Part shown: positions 143 through 54,651 of the stretch, piece after piece
How the letters are laid out: the number at the start of each line of letters is the position of its first letter
How positions within the stretch are numbered: position 1 is the first letter of the stretch
NCBI GenBank assembly: GCA_040954595.2
Contig: CM082588.2
Location: forward strand, 6,398,202 to 6,462,201
DNA: 64,000 bases
Reading direction: 5' to 3'
From: Balanoglossus misakiensis
Taxonomy: Eukaryota; Animalia; Hemichordata
Position numbers and translations under genes: made by a program
Notes under the pieces: generated by a model
Told to the model about the DNA's origin: nothing
The model's input: only the letters and a program-made list of their open reading frames with translations
Databases searched by the model: none

Positions 143-220
<78 letters not shown>

Positions 221-9918: not shown

Positions 9919-9951
<33 letters not shown>

Positions 9952-24727: not shown

Positions 24728-25100
24728 CTTCTGCTTACACTCTGTTTGGTCTCCACAGTACTTTCCTTTGTGTTGAGTCTGCGCATTGTTGACAGTAGAT
24801 CCAGGTCAGCATTTGGGTCAGCCTTTCAAAGTTTTTATGTTGCGAGTGAAACTCCTTCTGTAAAGTCCACCCATCGATTCTTTGTCTCGTACGCCTCTGT
24901 ATACCGCTATCGCCGTCTTCAAGATTCTTCCTCCTTCATATTTCTGTGTTTTCCAACAGCCCTACATCCCTACACCTGACCGAACACACCATAGCAAAAG
25001 AAGCACACTCTTAAATAAACAGTCATGCACAGGACTGCTACAATGATCATGTAATGTTCATCTGTGTCATCATATGCTGTTTTTGACTGATGACCACGGA
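24728..25100 (-). pseudogene. Decayed ITIM-type cytoplasmic tail belonging to Ig receptor 1
   Basis: 24761-24935 aligns with the ITIM tail at ~29860-30030 and ~25060-25095 with the PAYDET segment at ~30718-30752. It has indels, and the Tyr codons of the VYAEV and TYADL motifs are destroyed. Confidence 0.8.
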
Positions 25101-25208
25101 GATCAATTAAAGCGTCAGATCAGTTGATTCAACATGAACAGGCTTAGTCCGCTGTTAGAGGATGTAGTTGTACCGACGCGTCAAATCACAATCAATTCGA
25201 TGATGTTT

Positions 25209-26159
25209 CTAGTGGAGTTTGCAGAAGAAAACCCCCACTACGATGACTACGACTAAGGGAAGAACAAGGGCAGACACACCAATAAAAACGCCAATTCTGT
25301 CGAGGGTGTTTGCCTGGTCATTTTCTTTGCTGTCATATACTGATGTATCGTTCGGTGTGCCTTCTGTACGGGGATGTCCAGTCACTGTGTTTGATGTAGG
25401 CGAGGGCTGGACGTTGAATGGTCCAAGCTGACATGTTCTGTGCGTGTCGTAGGCCGGGTGAACTCCTGTACAGGTGAACAATGAAGCGTGCTGTGCCCGT
25501 GTGGGTGTCCATGAAAATGACAGTACACGTGAACCATCCGCAGGGTCAGTGCCAGCGACAGTATTTAAAGATTCACCAGCAGATCCCTGTCTCGTCCATT
25601 GTGTTGTCAGTACAGGCACACCTGTAAGATCTGAGCGACACTCTAAGGACAGCGGGACCCCTTCAATCACGTTGAAATCATCATCATCAGGATCAACACC
25701 TATTGAACACCGCACATAACCAGATTGCGGGGTTACATACACATCCAGGCGAGCTGTACGGGAATACCGAAAAGGGCGTGTCGCAACAACACACTGGTAC
25801 TGACCAGAATCAAATTCGGCCTTGGTCGCTTTTGTTCTGATCATCAGGTCGAATGTCGAAGAGGTTCCTTGCACGGCGGTTTCTACAAGGTAGCGCGTAT
25901 CAACCTGTCTCAGGTTGACAATGCCATTGATGCTAATGTCCACTCCGTTTTTGTGCCATTCGACATCTTGACCGGCCTGTAGGTTTTGAACAGTACAGTG
26001 GAGAGTGACGGTAATCTCATTGTCGCTCCCGTACGCGAAAATCTCTGTCTTGTTCGTCGGTTCCACCAGGAATGAGGGGTCTGTTGCGTCTACGCTGGAA
26101 TATACTAGTGTGACAATCAGTATACACAATTGTAGACCAAGTAGGAACCTGGCATTCAT
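25209..26159 (-). CDS. Ig receptor 1: signal peptide, 2 Ig domains, TM, essentially tailless; intronless
   Basis: MNARFLLGLQLCILIVTLVYSSVDA; D1 C..W..DSGQYQC; D2; D3 deleted in frame relative to receptor 2; TM IGVFIGVSALVLPLVVVIVVGVFF; stop codon four residues later. Confidence 0.85.
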   Translation of the reverse strand: MNARFLLGLQLCILIVTLVYSSVDATDPSFLVEPTNKTEIFAYGSDNEITVTLHCTVQNLQAGQDVEWHKNGVDISINGIVNLRQVDTRYLVETAVQGTSSTFDLMIRTKATKAEFDSGQYQCVVATRPFRYSRTARLDVYVTPQSGYVRCSIGVDPDDDDFNVIEGVPLSLECRSDLTGVPVLTTQWTRQGSAGESLNTVAGTDPADGSRVLSFSWTPTRAQHASLFTCTGVHPAYDTHRTCQLGPFNVQPSPTSNTVTGHPRTEGTPNDTSVYDSKENDQANTLDRIGVFIGVSALVLPLVVVIVVGVFFCKLH

Positions 26160-26551
26160 GATAATCGCACTATGGTCGCCAATTATTGTTGTACTGCTCC
26201 AACGAAACGCTGTTCGTATTTTCAGAGACTGGCAACAAAGTATTGCTGTGTGTCCTTGGTCCGAGCACTTTCGTGACGTCTGCAAATAGCTGGCGATTGT
26301 TCGTTCTCCTCAACTCATTGAATGAATGACCCTTGCATTGAATGAATGCGAGCGATGGGTGTCACATATATAATGCTATCGTCAACTTACGCTTTTAGCT
26401 TTCTGGAGACTTGGGCCTTTTAAAGCCTTAAAAACTTTCCATGAAATCCTTTATATTGTGTATGTGTCTCGTACATAGGGATACTGGCGTTTGCATAGAT
26501 ATGCTAGAGTCATTGTCAACGCATCGTCTTCTTAAATCTCGTACGGCACCC

Positions 26552-28330
26552 TCACTGTTGGATCGGTTGCCCGTCAAATTGTCGTCCGCTCAGTTTTGGT
26601 TTTGGGTGAAGAATCGGTGGTCGGTGTCCAGGTATTGGTTTTTGTATTTTACCAGATCCCGTGTCGTTTTCCTTCGTCGACTGTTGTGGTCTTGTCTTTG
26701 CCTGTGCAGGGCGTTGGTGGGTATCGTTTCTGTGCTTAAGAACTGGCAGTGGTAGTGGATTCCCTAGTCTGACAACTACAGGCTCTGGGCGACCCGGTCG
26801 TGCGGGGCCTAATGTATCACTTGCATTGTTATATAGTCTAACTTGCTGAGCTACCTGGGAAGAGGCTGCCCCGTCGTAAGCCCAGTCGCTGTCGTAGTTT
26901 TCACTGGTTTCATAATATGCCGAGTTGACTGAAGAGAACGGCGTTGGTGACGAATTAGCACCCGCATCGACATTGACGATCCCGGTGTCTTCACGCGGGC
27001 TAGTGGCCTCGTTTCGAGAAAGTTTATTCCCCCGAGATTTTCGGAAGCAAACGATGACCAGAACGACACCGACTAACAGGACGAAAACCCCGGACAGACC
27101 AAACGCGACGCTAATTTTGTCAGAGACGTTGCCAGTGATGCGACGCGTATCGTTCTTCGCATAGGCGGCTGTGGCATCGTTGTTTAGAGTCGTGCCAATT
27201 GACGAACCGACACCGACTCTGAGAGTTGCCGCGGTGGTCCTATCTCTCCCAATCAAGGGTGCCGTGGTTTCTGGTGTACTTGTAGCTGGATGTCGAAGCA
27301 CAGTTGCTGTGGATTCGATGTTGACGTATAATATACTAGTGGCGGGTTCTGACTGCCCGATGCCATTCACTGCTACACAGCTAACGGAATATACGCCATT
27401 GTCGCCACTGGTAAAATCAGAACCTATGATGACGTTAGCGCTTTGGGAACGAAACGTTCCAACCGCCCGGTCTGACCACACGTAGTCCGTCACTGGAGGA
27501 TTGGCCACGGCGGTACACGTGAACCTGATGACTTGCGTCTCAGATGTGACTGTTTGTGAAGGCGGGGAAACCTGGGCGGTTGGTCGGTACTGGACGTTGA
27601 AGGGACCAAGTTGGCATGTCCTGTCTGTGCTGTAGGTCGGGTGAACTCCTGTGCAGGTGAATAACGCAGAGCTTTCTTGGCGCGTGGGTGTCCATGTGAA
27701 TGATAAGACATGCGAACCATCACTGGGGTCAGTGTTCGCGACAGTATTTAAAGATTCACCCGCTCTAGTCCAATCTGTTGTCAGTACAGGTACACCTGTA
27801 GGATCTGATCGACACTGTAGGGATAGCGGAACTCCTTCAATCACGTTGAAATCATCATTATCAGAATCAACACCTATGGAACACCGCACATAGCCCAATT
27901 GCGGGGTTACATACACATCCAGACGAGCTGGACGCGAATACCGAAAAGGGCGTGTCGCCACCACGCACTGGTACTCACCAGAATCAAACTCGGCCTTGGT
28001 CGCCTTTGTTTTGATTTGCAGGTCGAATGTCGAAGAGGTTCCTTGCACGGCGGTGTCTATAAGATATCGCGTGTCAACCTCTCTGATATTCACATATCCA
28101 TTAGTGCTAATGTCTACTCTGTTTTTGTGCCATTCGACATCTTGACCGGCCTGTAGATTTTGAACAGTGCAGTGCAGAGTAACAGTGATCTCATTGTTGC
28201 TTCCGTAGGGAAAAATCTGCGTGTAGTCCGTTGGTTCCACCTGGAATGGCGGGTTTTGAGCGTCAACGCTGAAGTATACACCAATAACAGTTAACAACTG
28301 TACGCCAAGTTGAGGTCCCATTATATTCAT
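26552..28330 (-). CDS. Ig receptor 2: signal peptide, 3 Ig domains, S/T stalk, TM, Tyr/Pro-rich tail without distal ITIMs; intronless
   Basis: Single ORF. D1/D2 nearly identical to receptor 1. Tail contains SAYYETSENYDSDWAY and ends shortly after PPILHPKPK, which is homologous to PPVVHPKPK in the ITIM-type tails. Confidence 0.9.
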   Translation of the reverse strand: MNIMGPQLGVQLLTVIGVYFSVDAQNPPFQVEPTDYTQIFPYGSNNEITVTLHCTVQNLQAGQDVEWHKNRVDISTNGYVNIREVDTRYLIDTAVQGTSSTFDLQIKTKATKAEFDSGEYQCVVATRPFRYSRPARLDVYVTPQLGYVRCSIGVDSDNDDFNVIEGVPLSLQCRSDPTGVPVLTTDWTRAGESLNTVANTDPSDGSHVLSFTWTPTRQESSALFTCTGVHPTYSTDRTCQLGPFNVQYRPTAQVSPPSQTVTSETQVIRFTCTAVANPPVTDYVWSDRAVGTFRSQSANVIIGSDFTSGDNGVYSVSCVAVNGIGQSEPATSILYVNIESTATVLRHPATSTPETTAPLIGRDRTTAATLRVGVGSSIGTTLNNDATAAYAKNDTRRITGNVSDKISVAFGLSGVFVLLVGVVLVIVCFRKSRGNKLSRNEATSPREDTGIVNVDAGANSSPTPFSSVNSAYYETSENYDSDWAYDGAASSQVAQQVRLYNNASDTLGPARPGRPEPVVVRLGNPLPLPVLKHRNDTHQRPAQAKTRPQQSTKENDTGSGKIQKPIPGHRPPILHPKPKLSGRQFDGQPIQQ

Positions 28331-29808: not shown

Positions 29809-32190
29809 CTACAACCTTACTTCTGCATACACAACGTCGTCATTTTGTTCGATTTCTTTGCTTTCCTTTGGGTTGAGTCTGCGCTTTGTTGGCGCTAAAT
29901 CCAGGTCAGCGTATGTCAACCCTTCAAAGTTTTTATGTCTTGCGCTGTCGTCTGACATGGTGACCCCTTCATTGTACGCCTCTGCATCTGTCATTTTATC
30001 GCCGTCGGTGAGATTTTCTTCCTCCTTGAAGGTTTCGCCTGCCCCCTCGGATTGGCGCTTCTTTTTGGCCAAATCGACGCTCGCATACATAACTCCAATA
30101 TCCCTTTCAGTCTGTGTTTGTTGTAGCTCTGATGGATTGTTCGTAGCCTGATTTTCGCCAACCGTTTCTCGAGTATCGCGTGCAATTATTGGCTTATCGT
30201 CATATTCAGAATTGTCAGCGTGGTCCCAAGGGCCCATCCCATCGTCGTCAGAAAGATTTTCTTCCCCCTTGCAGGCTTCGCTTGCACCCTCGGATTTGCG
30301 TTTCTTTTTCGCCAAATCGACTCTTGCGTACATAACACCAGTGGCCAGGTCACTTTGTGTCTGCTGTAGTTCAGATACACCCTTCCTAGCCTGGCTTTCA
30401 CCTTCGGTTTCTCTAGTACCGCGGGCAATTATTGGCTCACCGCCATATTCGGAATTCGCTGCATGGCCCCAAGTTTCTGTTTTGATTCCGCCTGACTGTC
30501 TGTTTGGTTTTGGTTTGGGGTGAACAACGGGTGGGTTCTTCACAGGCTTTGATTTTTGTCCGTCTCCTGGTCGTTGCATACCGGCTCTCTCGGCTCCAGT
30601 CTCTGGGGCACCTGCTTGTCCGAGGCCTCCTTTATTTCTATCGATATAAATGTTGGCTTGCAATGTGATTTGCAGAGATGTAGATTGGTCATCTAATCTG
30701 TGTTCGCGGATGTCGTCTTCTGTTTCGTCATACGCTGGGTTGACTGGTGAATACGTGGGAGAGGGGTCTGCTGCCTGGTCAACCAGTTGATCTGGGTTGA
30801 CTAATTCAGCATTATTAGTTTGAATGTCCTCGTAGGGGTTTGCATATCTGTGGGCATGTGTTGGTGCTGGTGTTATTGTTGGTGTTTGCGCATTCCGGGT
30901 ATGCTTCCTGCGTGACTTGCAGATACAGACGGCAACTAAGATACCAACTAAAGCTAAAATAAAGCCACACGCTCCAACTGCACTGCCAATGATGACTCCA
31001 GCCCCTTCCTTGCTGGTTTGCCTAGATTCTTTCTGTCCATACGCTAGTGTTTCAATGGTAGGTTCTCCCGTGGTACTCATCCACTGTTGCTCTTTACTTG
31101 TGACGTCAAAATCCACTGCATTTGTGGTAAAAATGTCCATCGATGTACTCAGATCCTTCACAGTTGTGGATGGAATGTCGACATACAATATACTACTGAC
31201 AGGTGCTGAATCGCCGATGCCATTAACTGCTGTACAGCTCACGGTATACACACCATTGTCACTACTCTCAAAACCTGAACCAACGATCACATTGTCGCTC
31301 TGCTGGTGAAATTTTTCGGCGTGTGACGTTGTCCACACATAGTCTGTCACTGCAGGATTTGCATCGGCTGTACATGTGAAGGTGACGACCTCTGATTCCA
31401 TGGTCAGTGTGTACGATGATGGTGAAATCTGGGCGGTTGGTTTGTACTGTACATTGAATGGACCTAACTGACATATTTTGTTTGTGTCGTAGGCGGGGTG
31501 AAATCCTGTACAGGTAAATGTTGCATGTTGCTGTTGGCGCGTAGGTTTCCATGAATAGTAGAGAACGTTTGAACCATCAGGATCCGCCCCTCTGATTGGA
31601 GCAATTATGTCATCATGAAACCCATTTCTTGCCCATTTGGTCGTTACGGCAGGTACACCTGTAGAATCTGAACGACACTGTAAGGAGATCGATATTCCTT
31701 GAATCGCGTTGAAATCGTCATCTTCGGCAACAGTACCAATTGAACATCGTAACGAGTCTGACTGGGGGAGTACATAGACGTCCAGGCGGGCAAAAGTAGA
31801 TTGCAGGTAGGGGGTTGCCGTCACTACACATCGGTAATTGCCCGAGTCTTTGACAGCATTGGCGGCATTCGTGTTGATGTGTAGATTGAATATTAAAAGA
31901 GGTGACGACGAATAGTGGACTATAGTATAACGATCGTCAGTGTACATCGTCATGAAGACGTCGCCATTGTTGCTGATTTGTAATCCGTTCTTGTACCATT
32001 GTACACTATGACCCCTTAAATTTTCAACGGTACAGTAAAACTCGACAAGAGAATCCACACTGCTACCGTGCGTGAATACCTTTTTAACGTCAGTTGGCTC
32101 TGTCCCGAATTCAGGGTCAAGTGCTTCGACTGTGGAACGCACACGAGCCAGCACGAATACTTGCAAGACAAGAAATCCGTTTAGATACAT
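29809..32190 (-). CDS. Ig receptor 3: 3 Ig domains, TM, inhibitory tail with 4 ITIMs; intronless
   Basis: Signal MYLNGFLVLQVFVLARVRSTVEA; TM VIIGSAVGACGFILALVGILVAVCIC; VMYARV, VMYASV, LTYADL and VVYAEV fit (I/V/L/S)xYxx(L/V). Confidence 0.92.
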   Translation of the reverse strand: MYLNGFLVLQVFVLARVRSTVEALDPEFGTEPTDVKKVFTHGSSVDSLVEFYCTVENLRGHSVQWYKNGLQISNNGDVFMTMYTDDRYTIVHYSSSPLLIFNLHINTNAANAVKDSGNYRCVVTATPYLQSTFARLDVYVLPQSDSLRCSIGTVAEDDDFNAIQGISISLQCRSDSTGVPAVTTKWARNGFHDDIIAPIRGADPDGSNVLYYSWKPTRQQQHATFTCTGFHPAYDTNKICQLGPFNVQYKPTAQISPSSYTLTMESEVVTFTCTADANPAVTDYVWTTSHAEKFHQQSDNVIVGSGFESSDNGVYTVSCTAVNGIGDSAPVSSILYVDIPSTTVKDLSTSMDIFTTNAVDFDVTSKEQQWMSTTGEPTIETLAYGQKESRQTSKEGAGVIIGSAVGACGFILALVGILVAVCICKSRRKHTRNAQTPTITPAPTHAHRYANPYEDIQTNNAELVNPDQLVDQAADPSPTYSPVNPAYDETEDDIREHRLDDQSTSLQITLQANIYIDRNKGGLGQAGAPETGAERAGMQRPGDGQKSKPVKNPPVVHPKPKPNRQSGGIKTETWGHAANSEYGGEPIIARGTRETEGESQARKGVSELQQTQSDLATGVMYARVDLAKKKRKSEGASEACKGEENLSDDDGMGPWDHADNSEYDDKPIIARDTRETVGENQATNNPSELQQTQTERDIGVMYASVDLAKKKRQSEGAGETFKEEENLTDGDKMTDAEAYNEGVTMSDDSARHKNFEGLTYADLDLAPTKRRLNPKESKEIEQNDDVVYAEVRL
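29986..30471 (-). repeat. Coding tandem duplication (243-bp / 81-aa period) in the receptor 3 tail
   Basis: WGHAANSEY...GVMYARVDLAKKKRKSEG starts at 30471; WDHADNSEY...GVMYASVDLAKKKRQSEG starts at 30228. Confidence 0.9.
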
Positions 32191-32290
32191 GACCAGCCTT
32201 TGGTACACTGCAGCGAATTGGTGTTCAGAGACGCAAACAGTCCCACTGACGTCTAGTATTACCCAGTTAGCACCCAGTTTGAGAATTTCG

Positions 32291-32310
32291 TTTCCTCGAT
32301 CCGGGTACTT
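32291..32310 (-). promoter_or_regulatory. Conserved tandem ETS-like element upstream of receptor 3
   Basis: Minus strand AAGTACCCGGATCGAGGAAA. Confidence 0.55.
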
Positions 32311-33723
32311 TTGTGGTGTTTACCATTAACGATGGGGCTTTTTGTGAGTGTGGTGTTCAACAAAAATATTCAATAGCGTCGCGACGGTATTGAATTGACC
32401 TTTTCACTACGTCTTTGTATTATGACTAAGGCGATTTTAAGGCGGCACTGCAGGTTAGAGGCGATTATTTTATTCTCTCCAAATTTCACATTTATACCTA
32501 TTTGATATAGCATCGTATTTATCCACAATTTGGGAAATGTTTGGTTTCCTAATGTACCTAATGTGCTTCATTATCACAATTGGCGACATATACTATTTCT
32601 TTCTGTAAAATTATGTTGTACATAAAAGCTGGTGGCCTAAAGTACTGAATAAAAGTTTATTATTATTATAATGTACATACACTTTAAAGGTAGGACACTT
32701 TTATTGTAAGTCCCATCAAAATTACAAATATTTTCAAAAAATCCTGATATCAAAAATGTCCTATTTGTGAAGCTAGTGCTTGTGTGAGCTGCATGTGTGT
32801 GTGTTGATATAATGGGATATGAGTCAACGATTAGTTGATGTGAGTAATGCTGTCTATTACCATTTGTATGCGTTCGTACATTGTTTGCTACTGGGTCGTA
32901 CATTACTTTAAATAACAACGTGGTAGATCGTAGAGGGCGGTGAAAATGTCACAAAAGTTGCATTGTACTTTCTTTTCCGGGATCACGACCTGATCTGTTT
33001 ACTCGCCAATCTCTTAAGGACGTTCTCACCACCATTATCGTTGTCCATTCTCCGAACTCTATAGCGCAAACTTAAATACACGTACACAAATTTACAATTC
33101 TTAAGAGTGATCACAAGATTATCGATATGGTGCGTAGATTAAATGCATATATTATACTTACATGTTCATATGATAGTAAATTTCGAAGTCATTAGCTAAT
33201 ACGTACATGTATAGAGAAATTAATCATTCACAATTGTTGACCAATCTAATTATCAAATTTCCCGTATACGATGTCATGGCCATCAATAATCTTATCCCCG
33301 ATTAATATTAAATTCAGATGTATAATCATATGTCCAACACACTGGCGCTTACATTTGTTGATCATTATATGTTTCATTTTACGAGTGTTTCTAAAGAAGT
33401 CCTAGAACTTTTGATTGCATAAATATGAAAACATTCTTCGTGACAGGTACCGCTATTATATCTACTATAATCGGTTGCTTAGTAAACTTATACGTAATGT
33501 TGTTTGACCATATTTCTATGCCAGAGACTTAAAAGTACACATAATACCAATTGTTTTTATAACATATGTGTCGGAGAAAATCATTATAATGTCATGTAAT
33601 TTTTCGTTATTGTACCAATAGAACCCAGTAATATTCAAGAATTAATAACATGTCGAGCTGGAAAATTATTAATTTGATTTTCACACACATCTTGCATTGT
33701 GACTATCGTTTGACTGAAATTCC

Positions 33724-35712
33724 TTATTTAGTTTTCTCGACAACCTTTACATCATCAAGTGACGTGTAAACATCAGTGGTTGTAAGGTTTAAACTTTGAT
33801 AATGTTCGGCGCCATCGCTGACGTCATCGCCGTCGAATTCTTTGACCGGACTTTGAGGACCCTGGTCGGTGAGAGTTTTCGGTTCGCCATGTGCAACGCC
33901 CTCCTCGGTAACTTTAGCACCGTACAGGGACATGTAGTCAACTTTGTCTGGGGAATTCAAACTTTGATAATGTTCTGGTTGTTGCCTGGCAACACCGATA
34001 TCGTCGTACTGGACACTATCTGCAGGAATCTGACCAAGGTTGACTCTCACGTCCATTTCGTGTCCATTGGTTTTATGGTCTGTCCACCGGCTTCCTTCAT
34101 CTACTATCAGTCCTCGGTTACCCGATCTCATGACGCCAGGTTCCAAAGTACCTGAATGTGCAACGCGATCTTTATTTCTATCTATATAGATTTTGGCTTT
34201 CAGGCGGGTTTCCAAAGACGTTGAATCGTCGGTGGATCTTTTTCCGTTGTCGTATTCATCCGACTGATTGCATGCTGGGATTACTGATGGATACGGCAGT
34301 GGATCTGCAGAGTCGACTGAATCAGAATTTTTAGTTTCAATGTTTTCGTAAGGGGATGCATATCTGTGGTTATGCGTTGGTGCTGGTATTATTGTTGGTG
34401 TTTGCGCATTCCGGGTCTGCTTCCTGCGTGACTTGCAGATACAGACGGTACCTATGATACAAACTAAAGCTAAAATACAGCCACACGCTCCAACTGCACT
34501 GCCAATTATGACTCCTGTCCCACTATTGTCTGTTTGCCCAGATTCTTTCTGTCCATACGGTAGTGTTTCACCAATGAGAGGTTCTGCAGTGGTGCTCGTT
34601 CTCTGTTGTTCTTTACTTGTGACGTCAAAATCCACTCCATTTGTGGTAAAAATGTTCATCGATGTACTCAGATGCTTCACAGTTGTGGATGGAATGTTGA
34701 CATACAATATACTGTTGGCAGGTGCTGAATCGCCGATGCCATTGACTGCTCTGCAGCTCACGGTATACAAACCATTGTCACTACTCTCAAAACCTGAACC
34801 AACGATCACATTGTCGCTCTGCTGGTGAAATCTTTCAGTGTGTGGAGTTGTCCACACATAGTCTGCCACTGCAGGATTTGCATCGGCTGTGCATGTGAAG
34901 GTGACGACCTCTGATTCCATGGTTAGTGTGTACGATGATGGTGAAATCTGAGCGGTTGGTTTATACTGTATATTGAATGGACCTAACCGACATATTCTAT
35001 TAAACGTGTAGGCAGGGTGAAATCCTGTACAGGTAAATGTTGCATGTTGCTGTTGGCGCGTAGGTGTCCATGAATAGTAGAGAACGTTTGAACCATCCGG
35101 ATCCGTCGCTCTGGTTGGAGCAATTATGTCACCGTGAAACCCGTTTTTTGCCCATGTGGTTGTTATGGCAGGTACACCTGTAGAATCTGAACGACACTGT
35201 AAGGAGATCGGTATTCCTTCACTAACGTTGAAATTGTCATCTTCGGCAACAGTACCGATGGAACATCGTAAAGAGTCTGACTGGGGGAGTACATAGACGT
35301 CTAGTCGGGCAATAGTGGATTGCAGGTAGGGGGTTGTCGTCACTACACATTGGTAATTGCCCGAGTCTTTGATAGCATTGGCCGCATTCGTGCTGATGTG
35401 TAAATTGAATACTAAATAAGGTGGCGAGGAAGTTTGGACTACGACGGAATAACGATCATCAGTGTTCATCGTCGTCAAGACGGTGTCATTGTTGCTGATT
35501 TGTAATCCGTTCTTGTACCATTGTACACTATGACCCATTAAATTTTCAACGGCACAGTATAAGATCGCAGAGGAATACACACTGCTACCGTGCGTGAATA
35601 CCTTTTCAACGTCGTTCGGCTGTGTCCCGAATTCAGGGTCAAGTGCTTCGACTGTGGAACGCACACGAGCCAGCACGAATACTTGCAGGACAAGAAATCC
35701 GTGTAGATACAT
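33724..35712 (-). CDS. Ig receptor 4: ectodomain and TM like receptor 3, activating tail with 2 ITAMs; intronless
   Basis: YQSL-NSPDKVD-YMSL (33925-33969) and YQSL-NLTTTDV-YTSL (33757-33801), both YxxL-x7-YxxL. ATG 35712 chosen by homology to receptor 3. Confidence 0.92.
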   Translation of the reverse strand: MYLHGFLVLQVFVLARVRSTVEALDPEFGTQPNDVEKVFTHGSSVYSSAILYCAVENLMGHSVQWYKNGLQISNNDTVLTTMNTDDRYSVVVQTSSPPYLVFNLHISTNAANAIKDSGNYQCVVTTTPYLQSTIARLDVYVLPQSDSLRCSIGTVAEDDNFNVSEGIPISLQCRSDSTGVPAITTTWAKNGFHGDIIAPTRATDPDGSNVLYYSWTPTRQQQHATFTCTGFHPAYTFNRICRLGPFNIQYKPTAQISPSSYTLTMESEVVTFTCTADANPAVADYVWTTPHTERFHQQSDNVIVGSGFESSDNGLYTVSCRAVNGIGDSAPANSILYVNIPSTTVKHLSTSMNIFTTNGVDFDVTSKEQQRTSTTAEPLIGETLPYGQKESGQTDNSGTGVIIGSAVGACGCILALVCIIGTVCICKSRRKQTRNAQTPTIIPAPTHNHRYASPYENIETKNSDSVDSADPLPYPSVIPACNQSDEYDNGKRSTDDSTSLETRLKAKIYIDRNKDRVAHSGTLEPGVMRSGNRGLIVDEGSRWTDHKTNGHEMDVRVNLGQIPADSVQYDDIGVARQQPEHYQSLNSPDKVDYMSLYGAKVTEEGVAHGEPKTLTDQGPQSPVKEFDGDDVSDGAEHYQSLNLTTTDVYTSLDDVKVVEKTK

Positions 35713-43655: not shown

Positions 43656-43685
43656 TTCCTTGATCCGGGTATTTCCGTGACGTGA
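43656..43685 (-). promoter_or_regulatory. Tandem ETS-like element plus TGACGT half-site upstream of receptor 6
   Basis: Plus strand ttccttgatccgggtatttccgtgacgtga; an NRF1-like tgcgcatgcg lies at ~43764. Confidence 0.55.
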
Positions 43686-45379
43686 AAAGCGGTCAATAGC
43701 TATTCGTTCTTTGTATTCTCTTTAGTGGTGAACCTAGCAGTGAGTGAAAACTTTCAATAAATATGCGCATGCGTGGACTACAGTCAAAACTGCTTTTACC
43801 TTTACGAAAATGGGTTATTGTTGGATTGTTACCGGTCAAATAAGATTCATTTTTTTGGAAAAATAGAAAACATCATTTACTCCAGTAATTGAAATAATGC
43901 AAACACAATCAAGGTTTGATTGCATCCATTGGACTAAACACACCAACTTTCTCCCGCAAAATTACACTGTGATGTGATTACATTCAGTTTCAAAGTATCT
44001 GTCAATTTATAAACCACACATAGATGTCTGTATTGGGTCACATAGACAATTACTTTAAGTTTATTGTCTTGATTTGGAGTATCCACCTTTGCTGCAACAA
44101 CAACAAAAGAAGAAGAAAGGAAAGTAAGAGGGAAGGAGTTTGCAGTGTTACCACTTTCATTTTGTGTCGTCATCTCATGGCGTTTGTTTTAACTTCAACA
44201 TAAGTACCACTTACAAGTAGCGCATTGAATCTGGTTTATTTTAATTCCCCTCAAAATAACGAATATTTTCAAAAATGTTGATATAAAAATATCCTATTTG
44301 CGAAGGTAGTACTTGTGAACTGCATGTGTGTGTTGAGAATTGGATATAGATCGACGCTTGGTTGATGTGAGTAATTCCTGCAGATTCAGGGCCGTGCATG
44401 GACGTTGGTTCATTTCGGAACTGGCCTGTCGGGTATGTTTTATGTTTGCAAATTCACTGTCATTGAAAAACTATCGAATCATAACAATAATATACACCCC
44501 CCCCCCCAACGACCCACAAGACACTAAAATCCACATTGGACTCTCCGATGTGTGTTTTCGTCCATTGTTGGTCATTGGGGCGTACGTTACTTTAAATAAC
44601 GACGTGGTAGATCGTGCAGGGGGGTGAAAATGTCACAAAAATGCATTGTACTATTTCTTTTCCGGGATCACGACCTGACCTGTTTACTCGCCAGTCTCTG
44701 AAGACGTTCTCACCCCACTATCGCTGTCCTGATTCTCCGAACTCTATAACACAAACTTAAATACACAAATTTACCATTGTTAAAAGAGATCGCAATATTA
44801 TCAATATGGTGCGTAGATTTAATGCATATATGTTTATACTTACATGTTCATATGATAGTTAATTTCGAAGTTCTAAGCTAACACGTATTGAGAAATTAAT
44901 CATTCTCAATTGTTGACCAATCTAATTTTCAAAATTTCCCTATAATATGTACCTGGCCTTCAATAATCCAATCCCCTAATGAATATAATAATCATATGTC
45001 TAACACATTAGCACTTGCATTCGTTGATCATAGTGTTTTTCAATTTACGGGTGTGTTCTGAAGTTATCTGGATCTTTTCATTGCATAAATATGAAAGCAT
45101 TCCTCCTTACAATTGAACTACTAGTATGCTACTCAGTATACTGTGACGTCATATAGTTTGCCCGCTCTGTCCCAGAGATTAAAATATATACACACACATA
45201 ACACCATAATTGTGTTGCAGAAAAAAATCATTGGCATGTAATGTTTTTGTAATATATCAATCAAACCGATAATATTCAAGCATTATGAGGAGGTCTGAAT
45301 GTTACTTTGAATGTCATTTTCACAGTCCTGCTTGCGTCGCGATTACAGTACCATCTGTGTGAAACTCCTCATTCAGTCA

Positions 45380-45736
45380 TCATTTCTCTATAACCTTTAT
45401 GTCACCGAGTGACGTGTAAACATCAGTGGCTGTAAGGGTTAAACTTTGATAATGCTCGACGCCATCGCTGACCTCATTACCGTCGAATTCTTGGACCTGA
45501 CTCTGAGGACCCTGGTCGATGAGAGTTTTCGGTTCGGTTTGTGCAACGCCCTCCCCGATAACTTTAGCGCTGTTCAGAGACATATAGTCAACTTTGTTTG
45601 GGGAATTCAAACTTTGATAATGTTCAGGCTGTTGCCTGGCAACACCGATATCGTCATACTGGACACTGTCTGTAGGAATCTGACCAATGTCGACTCTCGC
45701 ATCCATTTCTTGTCCAGAGTTTGAATTGTCTGTTTT
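45380..45736 (-). pseudogene. Out-of-frame but intact double-ITAM tail of Ig receptor 7
   Basis: Encodes KTDNSNSGQEMD...YQSLNSPNKVDYMSL...YQSLTLTATDVYTSL in a frame shifted by one extra base near 45737-45740 relative to receptor 6. May be an assembly error. Confidence 0.55.
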
Positions 45737-47144
45737 CCCCGCTTCTCGCGTCGTCCATCCTTTCTTCCACTGAAAATCTGGTGCATGGAATTCGACGGTG
45801 CCTACGAATTTCGACAAAACAATACAAGTTGATGGCTATACCAACAATAACGACCACACTCAAGATGGCGATCACTGTGCTGGTGACAACATCTTTTGTG
45901 CTGGTTTTCGAATTGTTTGACCGTTCATTGTCGTCTGAATCAGACATTTCTGTGCTCACTAAATTTCCTGTGGTTCCATCATCGGTGCTGACTGAATTTC
46001 CTTCTGCTTCGTCGAGATCGGTTATGATGCTACGAGATGTATGAGATAATATAGATGGATTGGTTGAGAAAACATTTAAAGTCGACGGTTGCATTACATG
46101 GCCCGTGGTTGTTACTGATTGAATGTTAATTGTCAAGGTACTGATGGCAGTTTCTGACTTTCCGATGACATTGCCAGCTTCACAGCTGATAAAATATACA
46201 CCATTATTAGCACTCGTAATGTCAGAAACGATTAAGACATTGTCACTCTGATAGCTATGCTCGATGCCTGTTGTAATTCCCCACCTATAGTCTTCCACTG
46301 AAGGATTTGCATCACCACTACATGTAAATTCGACGGCTTGAGTTTCAACCGTAACTGTGAGCGATTGTGGTGAAATCTGCGCGATTGGTTTGTACTGTAC
46401 ATTGAATGGACCGAGTTGACATGTTCTGTTTGTGATGTGTGTGGGGTGAAACCCCATGCAGGTAAATATTGCATGCTGTTCCTGAGGTGCTGCTGTCCAA
46501 GAATAGCTGAGAACTTTTGTGCCATCCGCGTCTGTGGTTCCGACTGTATTACTGATATCATTGGGAAATCCATTTCTGGTCCATTCTGTTGTTATGGCGG
46601 GTGTGCCCGTGGGATCTGAACGACACTGTAGAGACACTGCTGTTCCTTCCATCACGTTAAAATCGTCGTCATTTGGATCAGTGCCGATTGAACACCATGT
46701 ATATCCCGTCTGTGGGGTTACATAGACATCCAGACGTGCAGTACGGGATTCCAAGGGAGGGGTTGTCGTCACCACACACTGGTACTCACCCGTGTCAAAT
46801 ACGGCATTGGCCGCAGACGTTGTGATTTGTAGGTTGAATAACGAATATCCCCGATCCAGATAGTAGTACACACTGTACCGATTAAGATCCACTGTGAAGA
46901 TGTTGTACACAGCGTCGTTGTTGCTGATTTGGAGCCCGTTCTTATACCAATTTACACTCTGGTCAGCCTGCAAATATCGAACAGTACAGCGTAGACTAAT
47001 AGTACTAACGTCATTGCTTCCAAACGCAAATATCTGTACATAGTCACCTGGTTCTTCCTGGAAGGTGGGGCTTGTTGCTTCAACGCTGGAATACACAGCA
47101 ACCAGAAACAGTAAACGGAGGCCGAATACTCCCTTTCCATGCAT
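45654..47144 (-). CDS. Ig receptor 7: 3 Ig domains, TM; ITAM tail frameshifted as assembled (would end at 45380 if corrected)
   Basis: Signal MHGKGVFGLRLLFLVAVYSSVEA; stalk and TM near-identical to receptor 6; the frame diverges after EERMDDAR. Confidence 0.85.
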   Translation of the reverse strand: MHGKGVFGLRLLFLVAVYSSVEATSPTFQEEPGDYVQIFAFGSNDVSTISLRCTVRYLQADQSVNWYKNGLQISNNDAVYNIFTVDLNRYSVYYYLDRGYSLFNLQITTSAANAVFDTGEYQCVVTTTPPLESRTARLDVYVTPQTGYTWCSIGTDPNDDDFNVMEGTAVSLQCRSDPTGTPAITTEWTRNGFPNDISNTVGTTDADGTKVLSYSWTAAPQEQHAIFTCMGFHPTHITNRTCQLGPFNVQYKPIAQISPQSLTVTVETQAVEFTCSGDANPSVEDYRWGITTGIEHSYQSDNVLIVSDITSANNGVYFISCEAGNVIGKSETAISTLTINIQSVTTTGHVMQPSTLNVFSTNPSILSHTSRSIITDLDEAEGNSVSTDDGTTGNLVSTEMSDSDDNERSNNSKTSTKDVVTSTVIAILSVVVIVGIAINLYCFVEIRRHRRIPCTRFSVEERMDDARSGENRQFKLWTRNGCESRHWSDSYRQCPV

Positions 47145-47565: not shown

Positions 47566-49020
47566 CTAATTTCCAACAGCGTTTTGTTCCAGCTGAATTT
47601 CGCCTGCAGAGGCATTGAACATTTTCTGATCCATCGGCTCCGTTTCCGTCGTTCTGTCCGTCGGTATCAGTATACCAAGAGACTGATATGCTGAATGAAG
47701 TGTATTCGGGTCAATGCTTTCGTAGCGGTTTGGCCCTACGTGTACGCGTGGTTCTGGCAGCCCGTTTCTGGGTTCAGTTTGTCGTGATTTACGGATGCAG
47801 AAGATCGTCAGGAAGACTCCAGTTATCAAACCAAGTCCACATACACCTATCACACCGCCGAACAAAATATGTGCAGAGTTGTGGTCTTTATAACTCGTTT
47901 TCCCACGTACAAAAACATCTGTGGTCTTAGCAGTTGTGCTGGGCTGTACACTCATTGCCTTGCTTGACAAGCCAACCCTAGCAGTCGTTGTTACACCTAC
48001 GTCGACGTTTAAGATACCAGAGGAAGCTGTTGATTCTCCAATATCATTCACAGCTGTACAGCTAACGTTATATACGCCACTGTTTTCTTGTGAAAAGTTA
48101 GCCATTATTAGCTCACTTCCATCGTGGTTTGTCTGAACGTCGAACGTTTCCTCTGCTGTATTTGACCACAAATACAATGTCACTGGAGGATTTGCATCGG
48201 CGACACACGTGTAGGTAATGACTTGTGTTTCCACGGTAACCGTGTGTGATGACGGCGAAAGTTGGACGATTGGCTTGTACTGTACATTGAATGGACCTAA
48301 CTGACATGTTTTGTTTGTGTCAAAGGCAGGGTGAAATCCTGTACAGATGAATGTGGCAGAGTTTTCTTGTGGTGTCGGTGTCCATTTGTAGAAAAGAACA
48401 TTTGTGCCATTAAGTGTGCCTCTTTGTGCATTAGTCTCATCGTCTGGATACCCTTGTCTGGACCAATCCGTTCTTATTGCAGGAACGCCTGTAGTATCTG
48501 ACAGACAATACAAATACAGCGGATTACCTTCGATCACGTTGAAATCGTCATTGTTGGGGTCGTCATCACCGATTGAACATCGAACAAAACCAATTTGCGG
48601 ATACACATAGACATCTAGACGAGCCACACGCGATTCTAGCGGAGGCGTTGTCATCACCTTACAGTGGTAGTTGCCTGTGTCCAATCGAGCATAGTCTTTC
48701 CCCGTTACGATCGATAGGCTGGATGTCGTATTGATTCCATTAACAGAGGTGGTAAGAGTATACCGACTGTTGGGCAAGGACAATCTGATGTCTTGTTCCC
48801 CATTTTTGTACCAATCAATGCTATAGCCCTCTGGCAAGTCCTTGATGACACAGCTGAACGTTACAGTGACGTTGTAGACTTCACCGTACGGATATATCTG
48901 TGTCAAGTCTGCAGGTTCCGTCTCGAACGAAGGGGTTGAAGTGACCGACACAACATTGAAGTACACAGCAGCCAATACACACAAAGTCAGTCTGGTTAGA
49001 TGTCTTCGAAAAGTAGCCAT
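47566..49020 (-). CDS. Ig receptor 8: 3 Ig domains, TM, short tail with one ITAM-like motif; intronless
   Basis: Signal MATFRRHLTRLTLCVLAAVYFNVVS; shorter, divergent D1; YESI-DPNTLHSA-YQSL (47677-47724) = YxxI-x8-YxxL. Confidence 0.9.
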   Translation of the reverse strand: MATFRRHLTRLTLCVLAAVYFNVVSVTSTPSFETEPADLTQIYPYGEVYNVTVTFSCVIKDLPEGYSIDWYKNGEQDIRLSLPNSRYTLTTSVNGINTTSSLSIVTGKDYARLDTGNYHCKVMTTPPLESRVARLDVYVYPQIGFVRCSIGDDDPNNDDFNVIEGNPLYLYCLSDTTGVPAIRTDWSRQGYPDDETNAQRGTLNGTNVLFYKWTPTPQENSATFICTGFHPAFDTNKTCQLGPFNVQYKPIVQLSPSSHTVTVETQVITYTCVADANPPVTLYLWSNTAEETFDVQTNHDGSELIMANFSQENSGVYNVSCTAVNDIGESTASSGILNVDVGVTTTARVGLSSKAMSVQPSTTAKTTDVFVRGKTSYKDHNSAHILFGGVIGVCGLGLITGVFLTIFCIRKSRQTEPRNGLPEPRVHVGPNRYESIDPNTLHSAYQSLGILIPTDRTTETEPMDQKMFNASAGEIQLEQNAVGN

Positions 49021-50385: not shown

Positions 50386-50610
50386 ACATACATACATACA
50401 TACATACATACATACATACATACATACATACATACATACATACATACATACATACATACATACATACATACATACATACATACATACATACATACATACA
50501 TACATACATACATACATACATACATACATACATACATACATACATACATACATACATACATACATACATACATACATACATACATACATACATACATACA
50601 TACATACATA
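50386..50610. repeat. Long perfect (CATA)n microsatellite, ~56 units
   Basis: Read directly; it produces the spurious MYVC/HTYI ORFs. Confidence 0.98.
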
Positions 50611-53090
50611 ATCATACACACACATCAGCTACAGAACTAAATAATCAGGGTCTGGGTCTAGTGTCCCTAAACAGATATTCCCACGCGGTCAAGAATACGT
50701 AAGCTCACACACATACACAAGCACATAAAACGGCATGGAATATTTCTGTCGGCTGTGAATGGAATATTTATCACACGTGCTGATTGGGCGTTCATGAGAT
50801 CGTCTAGACAATAAACTCCCACGATAATATGTTATTAAGCGCCTAATATTTTATGGCAGAGTACTCCACGGTATTATGTTTCAAATTTTAAATTCGTTTA
50901 GACACAAGATACTTGGTACACGTGACTTGTCCCTGTACTACGGAGTTTGATTTCGTATGACGTCATTTTTTGTTTGCCATCAACATTTTTCCCATAAAAA
51001 ATCTTCTCACTGTTGGCCAGGGGAGTGTAAATATCTTTTTCGTGTTGACAAAGCTTCACACAACAAAGTTTTACAATGTCGCTGTTTTTCCATCAGAGAA
51101 TTTGAAGCTCCCAATGACGATTCTTTTCCATTGAACAAACACACATATAATACGGTCAAATCAGGTTAACACCGTCCTCAGTTCAAAATGTCCCTTGACC
51201 TACTTTCTGCGGAGGGTTATTGATATCTTCCTGTACAGCAAAGTCTTTTGAAACTCCCCTTCCGGTCAGAAACATCACAAACAGTTGCAGGAGTAAACTG
51301 TATGCCATAAATAAGTGACTGGTCACTTATCGCTATTCACAGAAACTAGACAAGGGGAAATTAGCATTCATACGAAGGTATCAGTCCTATTCAGCCTTAA
51401 ACGTCTTCCTGTACTCGAAGCAATGGAGTTTGAACTTTTGGTTAAAGGGTAACCCTTGACAGACACTGACATTTTTCTTTCGGTCTGCAACTATTTTGTC
51501 TCGATATATCTCCCCCCCCCCTCACCTCGAGATACAAAATGTCTTTATATCCTTCAATGAGAATAATACACACATTCCACGCGGTATTCAAATAGCCATG
51601 CGCGACGATACATCATCGCCTTGCAGTTGCTAAGGGCAACTGCTCAACCCGCGCCTATATGTCCACGATCCAGCGGCTGCGTTCAATCAGAATACAATGT
51701 ATTATGCGTATACCCTATTCCTCAATGGGAAGTGGTATCAATGCGACCCATTGAGGGTTTTGTGTCACAGAGGGCGTGATGTCTACTGACTTGTTTACTG
51801 TACAATAAACCAGAAGTACACGTCAACGATAAATCTCCCATCCGACGATATCGGGCCACCTGTACAAAGAACTGGTCATAAATTAATCCACGGTAAATAA
51901 ATCTGATTCAAAGTATTTCAACCCGTTGGCAACACCTTAGGGCGATCCACACTCACGCCCTCTCAACACAAGTTAGACACACGTGACAATAAACACTGGT
52001 GTGATATGGTTTAACTCTCGAGATAACACACAGTTGAAGCTGATAGTGGTATCCTAGTATTATGTACGTGAGAGACACCAAGCAACGATAAAACAAACTT
52101 CAACAAAACAAAATCTGCAGTAGCAACCCACGTTATATGTCTATTCGTTTTCAAATAGAAAAGAACCCCTCATACAGAGAATGACACCGCATATGTACAA
52201 AAAGTTGTAAAATCAATAAATATAAACAATAAACATATTTTTTCTGATGAGTTAGATAGTGGAAATTATTATTTGCATATCGTTAATCGTTTGACGTGTC
52301 GAAACTGAAATACTAGTCACGACAGTTTTGATCTTCGAAACAAAAGCCGATATGATTCGGAAATATGACTCGGAAACTACATCCGTCTTGAAACAGAGAC
52401 TGCGTATGTATTAAAACCACCCATTTGCAAGAGTCCATACTGACACGCAAACCAACTTCAACAGTGGGCTTGTTGGTACGTCTGTTTTCACATCACACCC
52501 CATCCACCTGGGGTGGGGGTGGGGGCTCGTTCCTCGCCCGCTCCCTCAGTTCATTGCAAATGAAACTGAACGTATAATCTTAACTGTTCAACATGTGTTC
52601 ATGGCTATATACATTGAGACTGGTTAAGAAACCATTATATCGAGATTAAAGCGATTTAATGTGGACAGCACGTTCTTAATGGCTTTAAGTTGTAAAACAT
52701 GCCTTCGCTTGGCCTGTCGTCGACCACCATCTATACAAATTGAGATCACGTGACGGTTAAGCAGGGTAATGAAAGGAATTGGTGGAATTCGCTCTCGAGT
52801 GTTTTGATCTGTCCAGGCATGCGTGGCGACCGCTAGCTGCCCCGGGGAAAGTTATTTACGAGTGCCGCAAACATGCATAACTTCATACGCAGTAGAGGTA
52901 AAGCGTGTCACGGTACTTCGAACTGTTTTTTCGCAGCGTTCAGCATCAGTTGTGTCTTGGGAGACAAAACGCCCTATTACTGTGGCATATTAACATGTAA
53001 TTTCGCTTTTCTTTGAAATTAGCTCTGGTTGCAAAATTAACTATCACTGTTTATGATGTCCGATAGCTGAGTTGGTGTTTTTTAAACGAA

Positions 53091-54440
53091 TTATAAAGGT
53101 ATCGTGTCCATTTTGGTATAACTCTCCCCGTCCACTGACGTCATGGACTGGTAGTGTTCTTTTTCATTTTCTTCGACGTCTTTGGTGTTAACGTCACTGT
53201 TTATTGTCGTCATATTAAGCATGCTGCTGTGTTGGCTTGATGATTTGCTTCGGGAAGACGTCAGCGATGTCTGGCTCGGCGTCATTTTCCGCGAATCTGC
53301 GAGACCGTTGGCCTCCCGGGTGTCTGTGACGACGTCCGGGTTCGTCACGGTCGGCGGGGCGTGCTCCGATCTCTGCTTCCAGTACACCTCCCCGGTGTCG
53401 AGAGAGAGGGTCCCGAGACCCAAGGGTTGTCCCGACGCGTCTGTCTGCTGCTGGGCGCCCTTGTGGGTGGTGCCCTGCCAGCCGAAGTCGGACGCGGCCG
53501 TTACCTCGTATTTGCGGTTGTTGTATTCGTATTCATAATCGTCATCGTCGTCGTCGAATCTGTGTCTCAGTTTCAGAGCGATGACGACGATCAGGATGAT
53601 GATGAGGGCTATGAACGCGAGAGAGGCGCCGATCGATATGCCGATGATTTCACTCGTGGTGAAACCGGCTGTTTCGGTCTTGCGTGGCGCGGACACGGTG
53701 AGCGGGCCGACCTCGCACGTTCTGAAGACCGAGTACGCGTGGTGGGTCTCCGCGCACATCAGGATGGCACCGTCGTCGTCCGCGCTGGGAGTCCACTCAT
53801 ACTCCGCGAAGAGTTTACCGTCCTGGGTCGTCCCGCTCCGTGTCGACGGCAGACTCGTGTTGTCATGCCTACGGAACCATTCCAGTCTGGTCTCCGGTAT
53901 GTTCGCCACCGTCACGCACGTAACGACGGCCGCGACGCCGGCGCTGTAGTTGTACGGCGGCGCGTCTGGTATGCATCTGGGGTAGTTCGAATCGATCATG
54001 GAGACGACGTGCACCCTGACCTCGGCGTCCGGGGTGCGGATCACATCGTCGCCGTCCCTCTTGACGACACACCGGTAGAGGCCGCTATCGGCCGTGGCCG
54101 TGGCGGCAGTGACCTCTCTGATCTCCAGAGTAAACAACTTGTCATCAACGCTGGACACAACATACCTGTCAGAATCGACGACGTCTGCATCCTCAACAAC
54201 CAACTGGTCGTTATCGCTGATCGATTGGTTGTCCTTATACCAGGACAGGGTATGGTCCGATCCGAAGTTAATCACATAACAACGCAGTGTTATTGTCTTA
54301 GACGAGTATTCCCCTTGCAGGACAATCACTTCATCCTCCGGTTCGATCAGAAACGATGGCCGCTGCGGTTGTGCCAGCCGCAAGACGGAAAACAACACCG
54401 CCCAAAGAAACACCACCCACTGTCCCGAATGAGCGCACAT
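53091..54440 (-). CDS. Ig receptor 9 (divergent): signal peptide, 2 Ig domains, TM, tail with DDDDDDYEYEY and C-terminal YxxM-x7-YxxM; intronless
   Basis: PSFLIEPED..ITLRC..W..DSGLYRC; D2 ending CEVGPLTV (compare CQLGPFNV); TM IIGISIGASLAFIALIIILIVVIAL; EHYQSM-TSVDGES-YTKM (53109-53153). Confidence 0.9.
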   Translation of the reverse strand: MCAHSGQWVVFLWAVLFSVLRLAQPQRPSFLIEPEDEVIVLQGEYSSKTITLRCYVINFGSDHTLSWYKDNQSISDNDQLVVEDADVVDSDRYVVSSVDDKLFTLEIREVTAATATADSGLYRCVVKRDGDDVIRTPDAEVRVHVVSMIDSNYPRCIPDAPPYNYSAGVAAVVTCVTVANIPETRLEWFRRHDNTSLPSTRSGTTQDGKLFAEYEWTPSADDDGAILMCAETHHAYSVFRTCEVGPLTVSAPRKTETAGFTTSEIIGISIGASLAFIALIIILIVVIALKLRHRFDDDDDDYEYEYNNRKYEVTAASDFGWQGTTHKGAQQQTDASGQPLGLGTLSLDTGEVYWKQRSEHAPPTVTNPDVVTDTREANGLADSRKMTPSQTSLTSSRSKSSSQHSSMLNMTTINSDVNTKDVEENEKEHYQSMTSVDGESYTKMDTIPL

Positions 54441-54630
54441 ACCTGTATCAGTTCAGCACGTACCGCTGTCCATGGTTTTATGGCGTAGTAGGCCAAAAAT
54501 ATGGTAAAATTTCACCGATCAAGTCAACGTGATATGCGACACGATGAAACGCGACGCACCCATGTCAGTTACATACACGCACTCTATCTGCTGTCCCAGT
54601 GCAGTGCAGCGCAGTGTGCATACGTATTTT

Positions 54631-54651
54631 CACTTCCGGCATCCGGGTACT
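54631..54651 (-). promoter_or_regulatory. Tandem ETS sites upstream of receptor 9
   Basis: Minus strand AGTACCCGGATGCCGGAAGTG, i.e. ACCCGGATG followed by the canonical CCGGAAGTG. Confidence 0.6.

Follow-up and report, generated by a model that had tools for sequence, protein, structure and literature searches.

Results and discussion

A cluster of single-frame Ig receptor genes

The stretch of the acorn worm Balanoglossus misakiensis genome analysed here (64,000 nucleotides; GenBank assembly GCA_040954595.2, contig CM082588.2, positions 6,398,202 to 6,462,201 of the forward strand; hereafter the window) carries nine immunoglobulin (Ig) receptor genes, R1 to R9, all on the minus strand between positions 25209 and 54440 (within 24728-54651). 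Pfam Ig families were matched in all nine proteins (Ig_3, E values 1e-7 to 4e-16), each of which has an N-terminal hydrophobic leader and a single transmembrane (TM) segment, with two Ig domains in R1 and R9 and three (D1 to D3) in R2 to R8; the original prediction, made from the sequence alone, of nine co-oriented receptors of this build in single open reading frames (ORFs) is thus borne out. The term intronless applies here to the coding frames, and this build is not forced by the genome, because window genes lying at 1-12 kb are divided into pieces of exon size. The genes R3 to R7 span 17.4 kb, and from R3 to R6 genes bearing ITIMs (immunoreceptor tyrosine-based inhibitory motifs) alternate with genes that carry ITAMs (immunoreceptor tyrosine-based activation motifs). 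R3 to R6, which form the paired core, R8 and R9 are intact; R1, R2 and R7 are broken or truncated. We favour, with a probability of about 60%, the reading that this is a tandem family of single-frame three-Ig receptors with two opposing tail classes and recombination-paired ectodomains, most likely displayed on immune cells. The features of the core and of the adjoining R7 gene are as follows (ITSM, immunoreceptor tyrosine-based switch motif; aa, amino acids).

29809-32190, minus: R3, three Ig domains, stalk, TM and 369-aa tail with four ITIM-type motifs; 793 aa
30319-30336, 30076-30093, 29902-29919, 29818-29835, minus: the four motifs of R3
33724-35712, minus: R4, R3-like ectodomain, TM and proximal tail joined to an R6/R7-like distal tail; 662 aa
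33925-33969, 33757-33801, minus: the two ITAMs of R4
37582-40050, minus: R5, R6/R7-type ectodomain, ITIM-class TM and 371-aa tail with three ITIM-type motifs and one ITSM-type motif; 822 aa
38104-38121, 37852-37869, 37678-37695, 37591-37608, minus: the four motifs of R5
41802-43565, minus: R6, three Ig domains, ITAM-class TM and 143-aa tail with two ITAMs; 587 aa
41997-42041, 41829-41873, minus: the two ITAMs of R6
45380-47144, minus: R7, frameshifted tandem duplicate of R6, with its ITAMs out of frame at 45575-45619 and 45407-45451
30784-32457 versus 34297-35956, minus: tract shared by R3 and R4, 87% over 1690 bp, reaching from the proximal tail to some 250 bp upstream of the start codon
38969-40462 versus 42481-43968, minus: tract shared by R5 and R6, 83% over 1513 bp, reaching from the end of D3 to some 400 bp upstream

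The R4 start was placed at 35712, most likely the correct one rather than the first ATG of the ORF at 35940, because it aligns with the start of R3.

Mosaic structure of the paired genes

Self-comparison of the window revealed a two-by-two pattern: R3/R4 and R5/R6 share their ectodomains and upstream DNA, while R3/R5 and R4/R6/R7 share their tails. The distal tails of R3 and R5 are 87% identical over 1075 bp ending at the stop codon, and the distal tail of R4 with its downstream DNA is common to R6 and R7 at 78-79%. R4 is built of three layers: its 5' part is R3-like and recent, about 200 bp of ITIM-class sequence are older, and its end is of the ITAM class. It is an FCGR2C-like chimaera. Breakpoints lie between the ectodomain and the signalling module, and the motif blocks are left whole. 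Synonymous divergence (dS) in the ectodomains is 0.15-0.16 for R3/R4 and 0.30-0.46 for R5/R6, against 0.68-1.03 across pairs and 0.68-0.90 for R3/R5; in the tails it is 0.155 for R3/R5 and 0.205 for R4/R6.

An ectodomain tree was built from 18 rows, the nine window proteins and nine proteins of the acorn worm Ptychodera flava (the P. flava protein P0083, which lacks D1 and D2, was omitted). It groups R3 with R4 (support 100/100) and R5 with R6 and R7 (97/96), across tail type. Clades forced by tail type, in a test whose groups were set by tail type after the tree had been seen, were rejected (approximately unbiased test, p-AU 2e-39 for R3+R5 and 4e-48 for R4+R6+R7). These results point to repeated copying of ectodomains, presumably by gene conversion or unequal crossover. 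The proposal that each ITIM gene sits beside an ITAM gene with a closely related ectodomain accordingly stands as far as the grouping against tail phylogeny is concerned; the closeness falls short of that of classic pairs, as discussed below.

Two classes of cytoplasmic tail

The R3 tail carries VMYARV, VMYASV, LTYADL and VVYAEV, and the R5 tail carries VTYARV, VMYASV, LTYADL and TVYAEV, of which LTYADL is also an ITIM of SIRP-alpha. R4, R6 and the shifted frame of R7 each hold two YxxL-x7-YxxL ITAMs. The motifs are therefore present as originally claimed, and they exceed chance in 20,000 shuffles per tail: two ITAMs gave p<=5e-5 for R4, R6 and distal R7, and four strict ITIM matches gave p 1e-4 for R3 and 5e-4 for R5, where the count takes in SEYDDI and omits the T-type TVYAEV. 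The motif predicted as ITAM-like in R8 is YxxI-x8-YxxL (single ITAM, p 6.5e-4), and R9 does end in the proposed YxxM-x7-YxxM (Met variant, p 0.007). Alanine at Y+1 with a hydrophobic residue or Thr at Y-2, the SHP-type pattern, occurs in 8/8 motifs of R3 and R5 and in none of the four loose ITIM matches of R4. The patterns scored were the consensus forms quoted in 10.1101/2022.03.04.482883, with the ITAM spacer narrowed to 6-8.

An internal duplication of about 240 bp in the R3 tail (30011-30456, minus) doubles the V-x-Y-A-x-V module; R5 has it likewise, and the module is single in P. flava P0083. Relative to P. flava, both signalling modules, ITIM and ITAM, occur here in duplicate. In both tail classes, acidic Y-[DE]-[DE]-I sites are conserved, which may dock Src-family SH2 domains, this being the type of site that those domains prefer. 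A proline-rich P-x-x-x-P-K-P-K stretch, a possible SH3-binding site, is kept in the R2, R3 and R5 tails and in P0083 and is absent from R4. An 'MDxRV' stretch of the ITAM class was considered as a dead ITIM and rejected: blastp of distal ITAM against ITIM tails gave no similarity at E<0.01, and the P. flava ITAM tails lack the stretch.

Conservation of the tail classes in Ptychodera flava

None of the ten window proteins is present in the protein collection as an exact sequence. The four best of 11 matches to R3 are P. flava proteins of 42-53% identity, in line with an acorn worm as host. A relatives search without a word index gave 484 matches, of which 150 were listed; of ten relatives looked up, six are from P. 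flava and three from Saccoglossus kowalevskii. They bear automatic names (KIRREL-like, nectin-3-like, CADM2-like or uncharacterised), which agrees with the expectation that the family would be annotated only in such terms. A profile search returned eight matches, five of them P. flava proteins already known; the atlas searches yielded only generic Ig clusters. The R3 tail gave no match in a search by word index; with P0083 clearly related to it, this blank reflects the sensitivity of the search. Of the 109 proteins of 250-900 aa that were fetched, 78 possess a TM segment, and a strict ITAM occurs in 5 of these 78.

Both tail classes exist in P. flava: the ITAM module of the window genes also closes P0001 and P0003, their three-motif ITIM block closes P0083 (XP_070569247.1), and each of these three proteins is listed on a contig of 44,297,253 bases. 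The tyrosine motifs, whose lack of conservation in orthologs would have counted against the original prediction, are conserved in this second species amid diverged flanks. Between the species, identity is 80-83% at motif positions and 28-44% in the remainder of the tail, a difference that is significant in 7/7 comparisons (Fisher p 2e-4 to 9e-3); ITIM positions are kept at 15/18 against 41-44% in their flanks, and ITAM positions at 12/15 against 28-40%. The TM segments, too, fall into two conserved classes.

A tree of D3 (14 rows, an 84-column domain; R1, R9, P0019, P0024 and P0036 left out) addresses the ectodomains. The D3 of P0083 is 75-76% identical to that of the P. flava ITAM class versus 53-59% to those of R3 and R5; grouping P0083 with R3+R5 or with R3+R4 was rejected (p-AU 1.6e-8 and 0.004), as was grouping the P. 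flava ITAM class with R6+R7. From the tail conservation and these rejections, the tail classes predate the split from P. flava, and the ectodomains appear to have been matched again in each lineage. Cross-class matching of ectodomains thus has three instances, two in this cluster and one in P. flava. A loop of D3 is about 8 residues shorter in R2 to R7, of both tail classes, than in 7/7 P. flava members, with R8 intermediate; the short loop fits the spread of one ectodomain lineage through both tail classes.

Three more distant three-Ig relatives were also noted. P0019 (XP_070550477.1, P. flava, on another contig) ends in an ITAM, and P0084 and P0152 end in SHP-type ITIM pairs; the receptor system may accordingly be much larger.

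Fold of the ectodomain

The R4 ectodomain was modelled from a 30-sequence alignment (predicted local distance difference test score, pLDDT, 92.9) as three Ig domains, a V-type domain and two membrane-proximal ones, with canonical Cys and Trp residues. Its best structural matches are Rst, Necl-4, DIP-theta, SYG-1, nectin-3, Neph1 and CD155 (Z 15-16.8, identity 19-25%); Rst (4of8; Z 16.8, root mean square deviation 5.7, 200 residues aligned) and Necl-4 (5zo1; Z 16.5, deviation 9.5, 274 aligned) are tied. The model places the fold of R4 near cell-recognition proteins of the Ig superfamily (IgSF); orthology is not implied, and identity to the families matched is only 17-25%.

Weighing the interpretation

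Several results weigh against recombination-paired, opposing immune receptors. The paired D1 domains are only 77% (R3/R4) and 74% (R5/R6) identical, below published pairs, so that a common ligand is not assured: N domains of the putative Xenopus Ceacam pairs are 80-93% identical (PMC5112662), and SIGLEC11/16 conversion tracts reach 97-99% DNA identity (PMC5701461), above the pairs here. The ratio of nonsynonymous to synonymous divergence (dN/dS), estimated pairwise, is below 1 in all domains; the purifying selection acting on the ectodomains counts in favour of the reading. In D1 the ratio is 0.50-0.70 in 4/4 paralog pairs, with an R3/R4 interval (0.37-1.43) that includes 1, and it exceeds that of D2+D3 in 4/4 pairs with overlapping intervals. 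Among the criteria for paired receptors in PMC13358205 and PMC5112662, close linkage, ITIM/ITSM versus ITAM tails and recombination-kept similarity are found here, and a ratio above 1 on the ligand domain is not; as to the highly similar ectodomains that they also call for, the partners here group together in the tree at a D1 identity below the published range, and the upstream DNA shared within pairs is no more than a hint of co-expression. D1 differences are not concentrated on the C/F/G face; pooled, they peak in A/A', D and E. By its fold, the ectodomain stands nearest to proteins of adhesion and neural recognition. The P0083 model has no leader, D1 or D2 and may be a fragment, and the matching in P. 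flava rests on D3. No ITAM or SHP-type ITIM was present in the three Saccoglossus relatives looked up. The loose ITIM pattern matches the R4 tail four times (p 6.5e-4 by shuffling), so it does not by itself separate the tail classes. Finally, co-oriented tandem arrays make chimaeras without selection.

This last point is the core of an alternative that we consider unlikely, in which the ITAM and ITIM tails are real and opposing, each receptor has its own ligand in a mixed family like Hydractinia Alr, and the matched ectodomains are a neutral by-product of recombination in the array. Such an origin would suit a cluster in which all genes are co-oriented, three of nine are broken or truncated, the conversion is old (dS 0.15-0.46), paired D1 identity is little above the 68% of the same-class R6/R7, and R6 and R7 likewise share 3.3 kb at 82%. 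Threefold recurrence of the same cross-class matching, breakpoints that separate ectodomain from signalling module and spare the motif blocks, and tail classes distinct since before the P. flava split argue against it. Distinctly unlikely, in our estimation, is a non-immune role, in which the proteins would be receptors of the nectin/CADM/Neph type for adhesion or recognition between cells and would bind each other or related Ig proteins, for instance in neural wiring, in the control of epithelial contacts, or in engulfment at metamorphosis or in regeneration. The structural matches, the automatic names and the dN/dS below 1 are all in keeping with it; the low identity to those families is not, and a lineage-specific expansion with species-specific ectodomain clusters, chimaerism and frequent decay would better fit immune families. 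The tails also lack the C-terminal PDZ signatures of nectins and CADMs. That the tyrosines act not as ITAMs or ITIMs but as generic sites for SH2 docking or YxxL endocytosis, with classes that do not oppose each other, seems very improbable. Pfam matched no family in the nine tail pieces, its ITAM model included, although HMMER filters drop weak matches, and the loose ITIM pattern fits both classes; this reading has to contend with the exact 7-residue spacing of 6/6 ITAMs of R4, R6 and R7 and of those of P0001, P0003 and P0019, and with the SHP-type pattern that is confined to R3 and R5 in the comparison with R4. We retain the reading of paired receptors with opposing tails.

Comparison with known paired receptors

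Among the human Fc receptors, FcgRIIB carries an ITIM, and FcgRIIA and FcgRIIC carry their own ITAM. The FCGR2A/2B/2C genes resemble the cluster in being co-oriented and in including a chimaeric gene with 5' and 3' parts from different paralogs, as in R4; they differ in their unrelated sequence, multi-exon structure and IgG binding, and in that the parts of the chimaera are near-identical to their donors versus 87% for R3/R4 (PMC6786274). CEACAM1/3 and Xenopus Ceacam share with it the contrast of ITIM/ITSM tails with intrinsic ITAM tails, within-species matching of ligand domains by recombination, and decay on loss of the partner; those pairs, however, are vertebrate, multi-exon and facing each other, with conversion limited to the N exon and with positive selection (PMC5112662), whereas here the genes are co-oriented, the tracts extend over the whole ectodomain and dN/dS is below 1. 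Siglec-11/16 and Siglec-5/14 are similar in lineage-wise 5' homogenisation that includes upstream DNA and in frequent loss of the activating partner, as with R7 (PMC5701461, PMC13358205). Activating Siglecs signal via DAP12 (PMC13358205), for which the cluster TMs have no charged residue. D1, in an alignment read by eye, has the ordinary Cys/Trp/D-x-G-x-Y-x-C pattern, not a Siglec-type one. It also lacks the sialic acid-binding Arg and the cysteine signature of Siglecs. Activating receptors of the KIR, LILR, SIRP and Siglec type have a short tail and a charged TM residue for the adaptor DAP12 or FcR-gamma, and none of the nine TM segments here contains K, R, D, E or H.

Among invertebrates, Hydractinia Alr genes are likewise clustered IgSF receptors, some with ITAMs in their own tails and some with ITIMs; they are spliced and combine unusual Ig sequences with an Fn3-like fold, and matched ITIM/ITAM pairs are not described in the available part of that report (10.1101/2022.03.04.482883). 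No Alr match was recognised in the relatives searches, and the three modelled domains of R4 are predicted to be Ig-type and not Fn3-like. Botryllus FcoR proteins are Ig receptors of an invertebrate deuterostome with ITIM versus activating-type tyrosine motifs, but with a sushi domain between V and C2, hemITAMs, fester partners and a motif swap by alternative splicing (PMC12065747). A sushi domain was not matched by Pfam in any of the nine window proteins, and D2 is Ig-like in the R4 model. Nectin, CADM (Necl) and Neph-Rst-SYG-1 proteins (4of8, 5zo1, 4fom, 4ofd) share the domain order and fold of the ectodomain and differ from it in sequence, as given above, and the cluster tails bear multiple ITIMs or ITAMs instead of adaptor-binding ends. 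No afadin/PDZ or FERM-binding C-terminal signature was seen by eye in the nine tail ends. In sum, the cluster probably works like FCGR2B/2C and CEACAM1/3 by its layout and like SIGLEC11/16 by its 5' homogenisation, and is a member neither of these systems nor of Alr or FcoR.

The original interpretation is borne out at the sequence level, and its self/non-self or pathogen-sensing role is a putative one. Invertebrate receptors with ITAMs or ITIMs are already in print for Hydractinia (Alr; 10.1101/2022.03.04.482883), Botryllus (FcoR; PMC12065747), oyster (CgIgR; PMC6994640) and amphioxus (BbLcLRR; PMC8211107), while no description of the present family, or of recombination-matched invertebrate pairs, was found in a literature search that reached few subscription journals. 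The main text of a Saccoglossus immune paper mentions neither ITAM, ITIM nor Syk (PMC10210618).

Other members of the cluster and neighbouring genes

The remaining receptor genes are listed below.

25209-26159, minus: R1, leader, two Ig domains, short stalk, TM and stop 5 aa past the TM; 316 aa
24739-24840, minus: decayed ITIM-class distal tail remnant downstream of R1 (blastn 80-85% to the R3/R5 tails, E 2e-20 and 1e-15; tblastn 62-71%)
26552-28330, minus: R2, three Ig domains, TM and shortened ITIM-class proximal tail without an ITIM; 592 aa
47566-49020, minus: R8, three Ig domains, ITIM-class-type TM and 75-aa tail with one YxxI-x8-YxxL (47677-47724); 484 aa
53091-54440, minus: R9, two Ig domains, TM and tail ending in YxxM-x7-YxxM (53109-53153); 449 aa

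R1 and R2 lack the distal signalling motifs, as predicted. R1 is a presumptive broken inhibitory-class gene, since its stop lies 5 residues past the TM and the decayed remnant of an ITIM-type tail comes after it, or else a tail-less receptor; the D1 and D2 of R2 are 83-84% identical to those of R1. R7 carries a one-base insertion near 45743 relative to R6, and its predicted product is a 496-aa receptor without ITAMs. One DNA contig covers 45623-45835 without letter changes except a further 14-base gap, so the sequencing data do contain the frameshift in that copy. The gap, at 45652-45665 in the R7 tail and on top of the frameshift, is carried by contigs from both runs, which indicates that R7 has another allele or copy in a more advanced state of decay. 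R9, with 25-41% identity in D1/D2, is a distant member whose tail end is weakly similar to that of the ITAM class. DNA contigs of one sample show many variant letters over the cluster, in which alleles and paralogs are not separable.

The surroundings of the cluster contain the following.

200-11600, minus: about three tandem copies of a multi-exon gene, whose pieces read like an alpha/beta-hydrolase of the BPHL/valacyclovir-hydrolase type
13739-16131 and 17849-20506, plus: two duplicated O-fucosyltransferase-family genes, 71% identical in nucleotides (PF10250 match for the first)
21038-22948, plus, and 56797-59154, minus: BTB-BACK-Kelch genes flanking the cluster on both sides
about 36463-36791, between R4 and R5: short, very high-copy interspersed element (summed contig depth >50,000, many loose ends at both edges), probably a miniature inverted-repeat transposable element (MITE) or a short interspersed nuclear element (SINE)
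50386-50622, between R8 and R9: 4-base microsatellite of about 60 copies, which gives a spurious ORF

One BTB-BACK-Kelch protein, of 785 aa, has two BTB stretches, comes from a single ORF and begins with MGC, a possible lipid-anchor signal.

Proposed mechanism and significance

In the mechanism that we propose, recombination would repeatedly re-pair ectodomains and tails, so that inhibitory and activating members see overlapping ligands. Clustering by ligand would lead a Src-family kinase to phosphorylate the tails, as in established ITAM/ITIM biology; Syk or Shark would then dock, through their tandem SH2 domains, on the ITAM tails of R4 and R6 and trigger activation such as phagocytosis, which SHP2- or SHIP-type phosphatases, recruited by the ITIM tails of R3 and R5, would damp. 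Because the ITAMs are in the receptor itself and the TMs carry no charged residue, activation would be intrinsic and need no DAP12-type adaptor, a build known from FcgRIIA/C and CEACAM3. That these pathways work in invertebrates is shown by oyster haemocytes, in which ITAMs signal through Syk (PMC6994640), and by the amphioxus ITIM receptor BbLcLRR, which recruits phosphatase (PMC8211107); invertebrate Syk homologues co-occur with Bcl10, hemichordates being among the Bcl10-bearing groups (PMC5978004). In evolution, the inhibitory receptor may have bound a self surface ligand and been exploited by microbes, and activating copies with a similar outer part may have been remade by unequal crossover or gene conversion, often decaying as in R1, R2 and R7.

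A wider scenario, attractive but in our judgement somewhat short of even odds, is that acorn worms independently evolved pathogen-driven paired receptors without the major histocompatibility complex (MHC) or adaptive immunity. Ancient tails would have been re-attached in each lineage to freshly matched ectodomains and promoters, the single-exon build easing swaps of whole ectodomains; activating decoys such as R4 would repeatedly be born from inhibitory self-sensors and lost again, and the balance between the two would set the activation threshold of phagocytes.

Paired receptors have been described as an innate immune strategy of vertebrates, and the known invertebrate Ig receptors with ITAMs or ITIMs belong mainly to colonial allorecognition systems or are single receptors. 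Hemichordate immunity is little known, the sources of the immunocytes being still unidentified (PMC10210618). If the reading proposed here is true, the paired design and the recombination that maintains it can arise without MHC or lymphocytes in a solitary deuterostome, and the cluster supplies single-exon markers for hemichordate immune cells and test pairs, such as R3/R4, for the decoy model of the origin of activating receptors.

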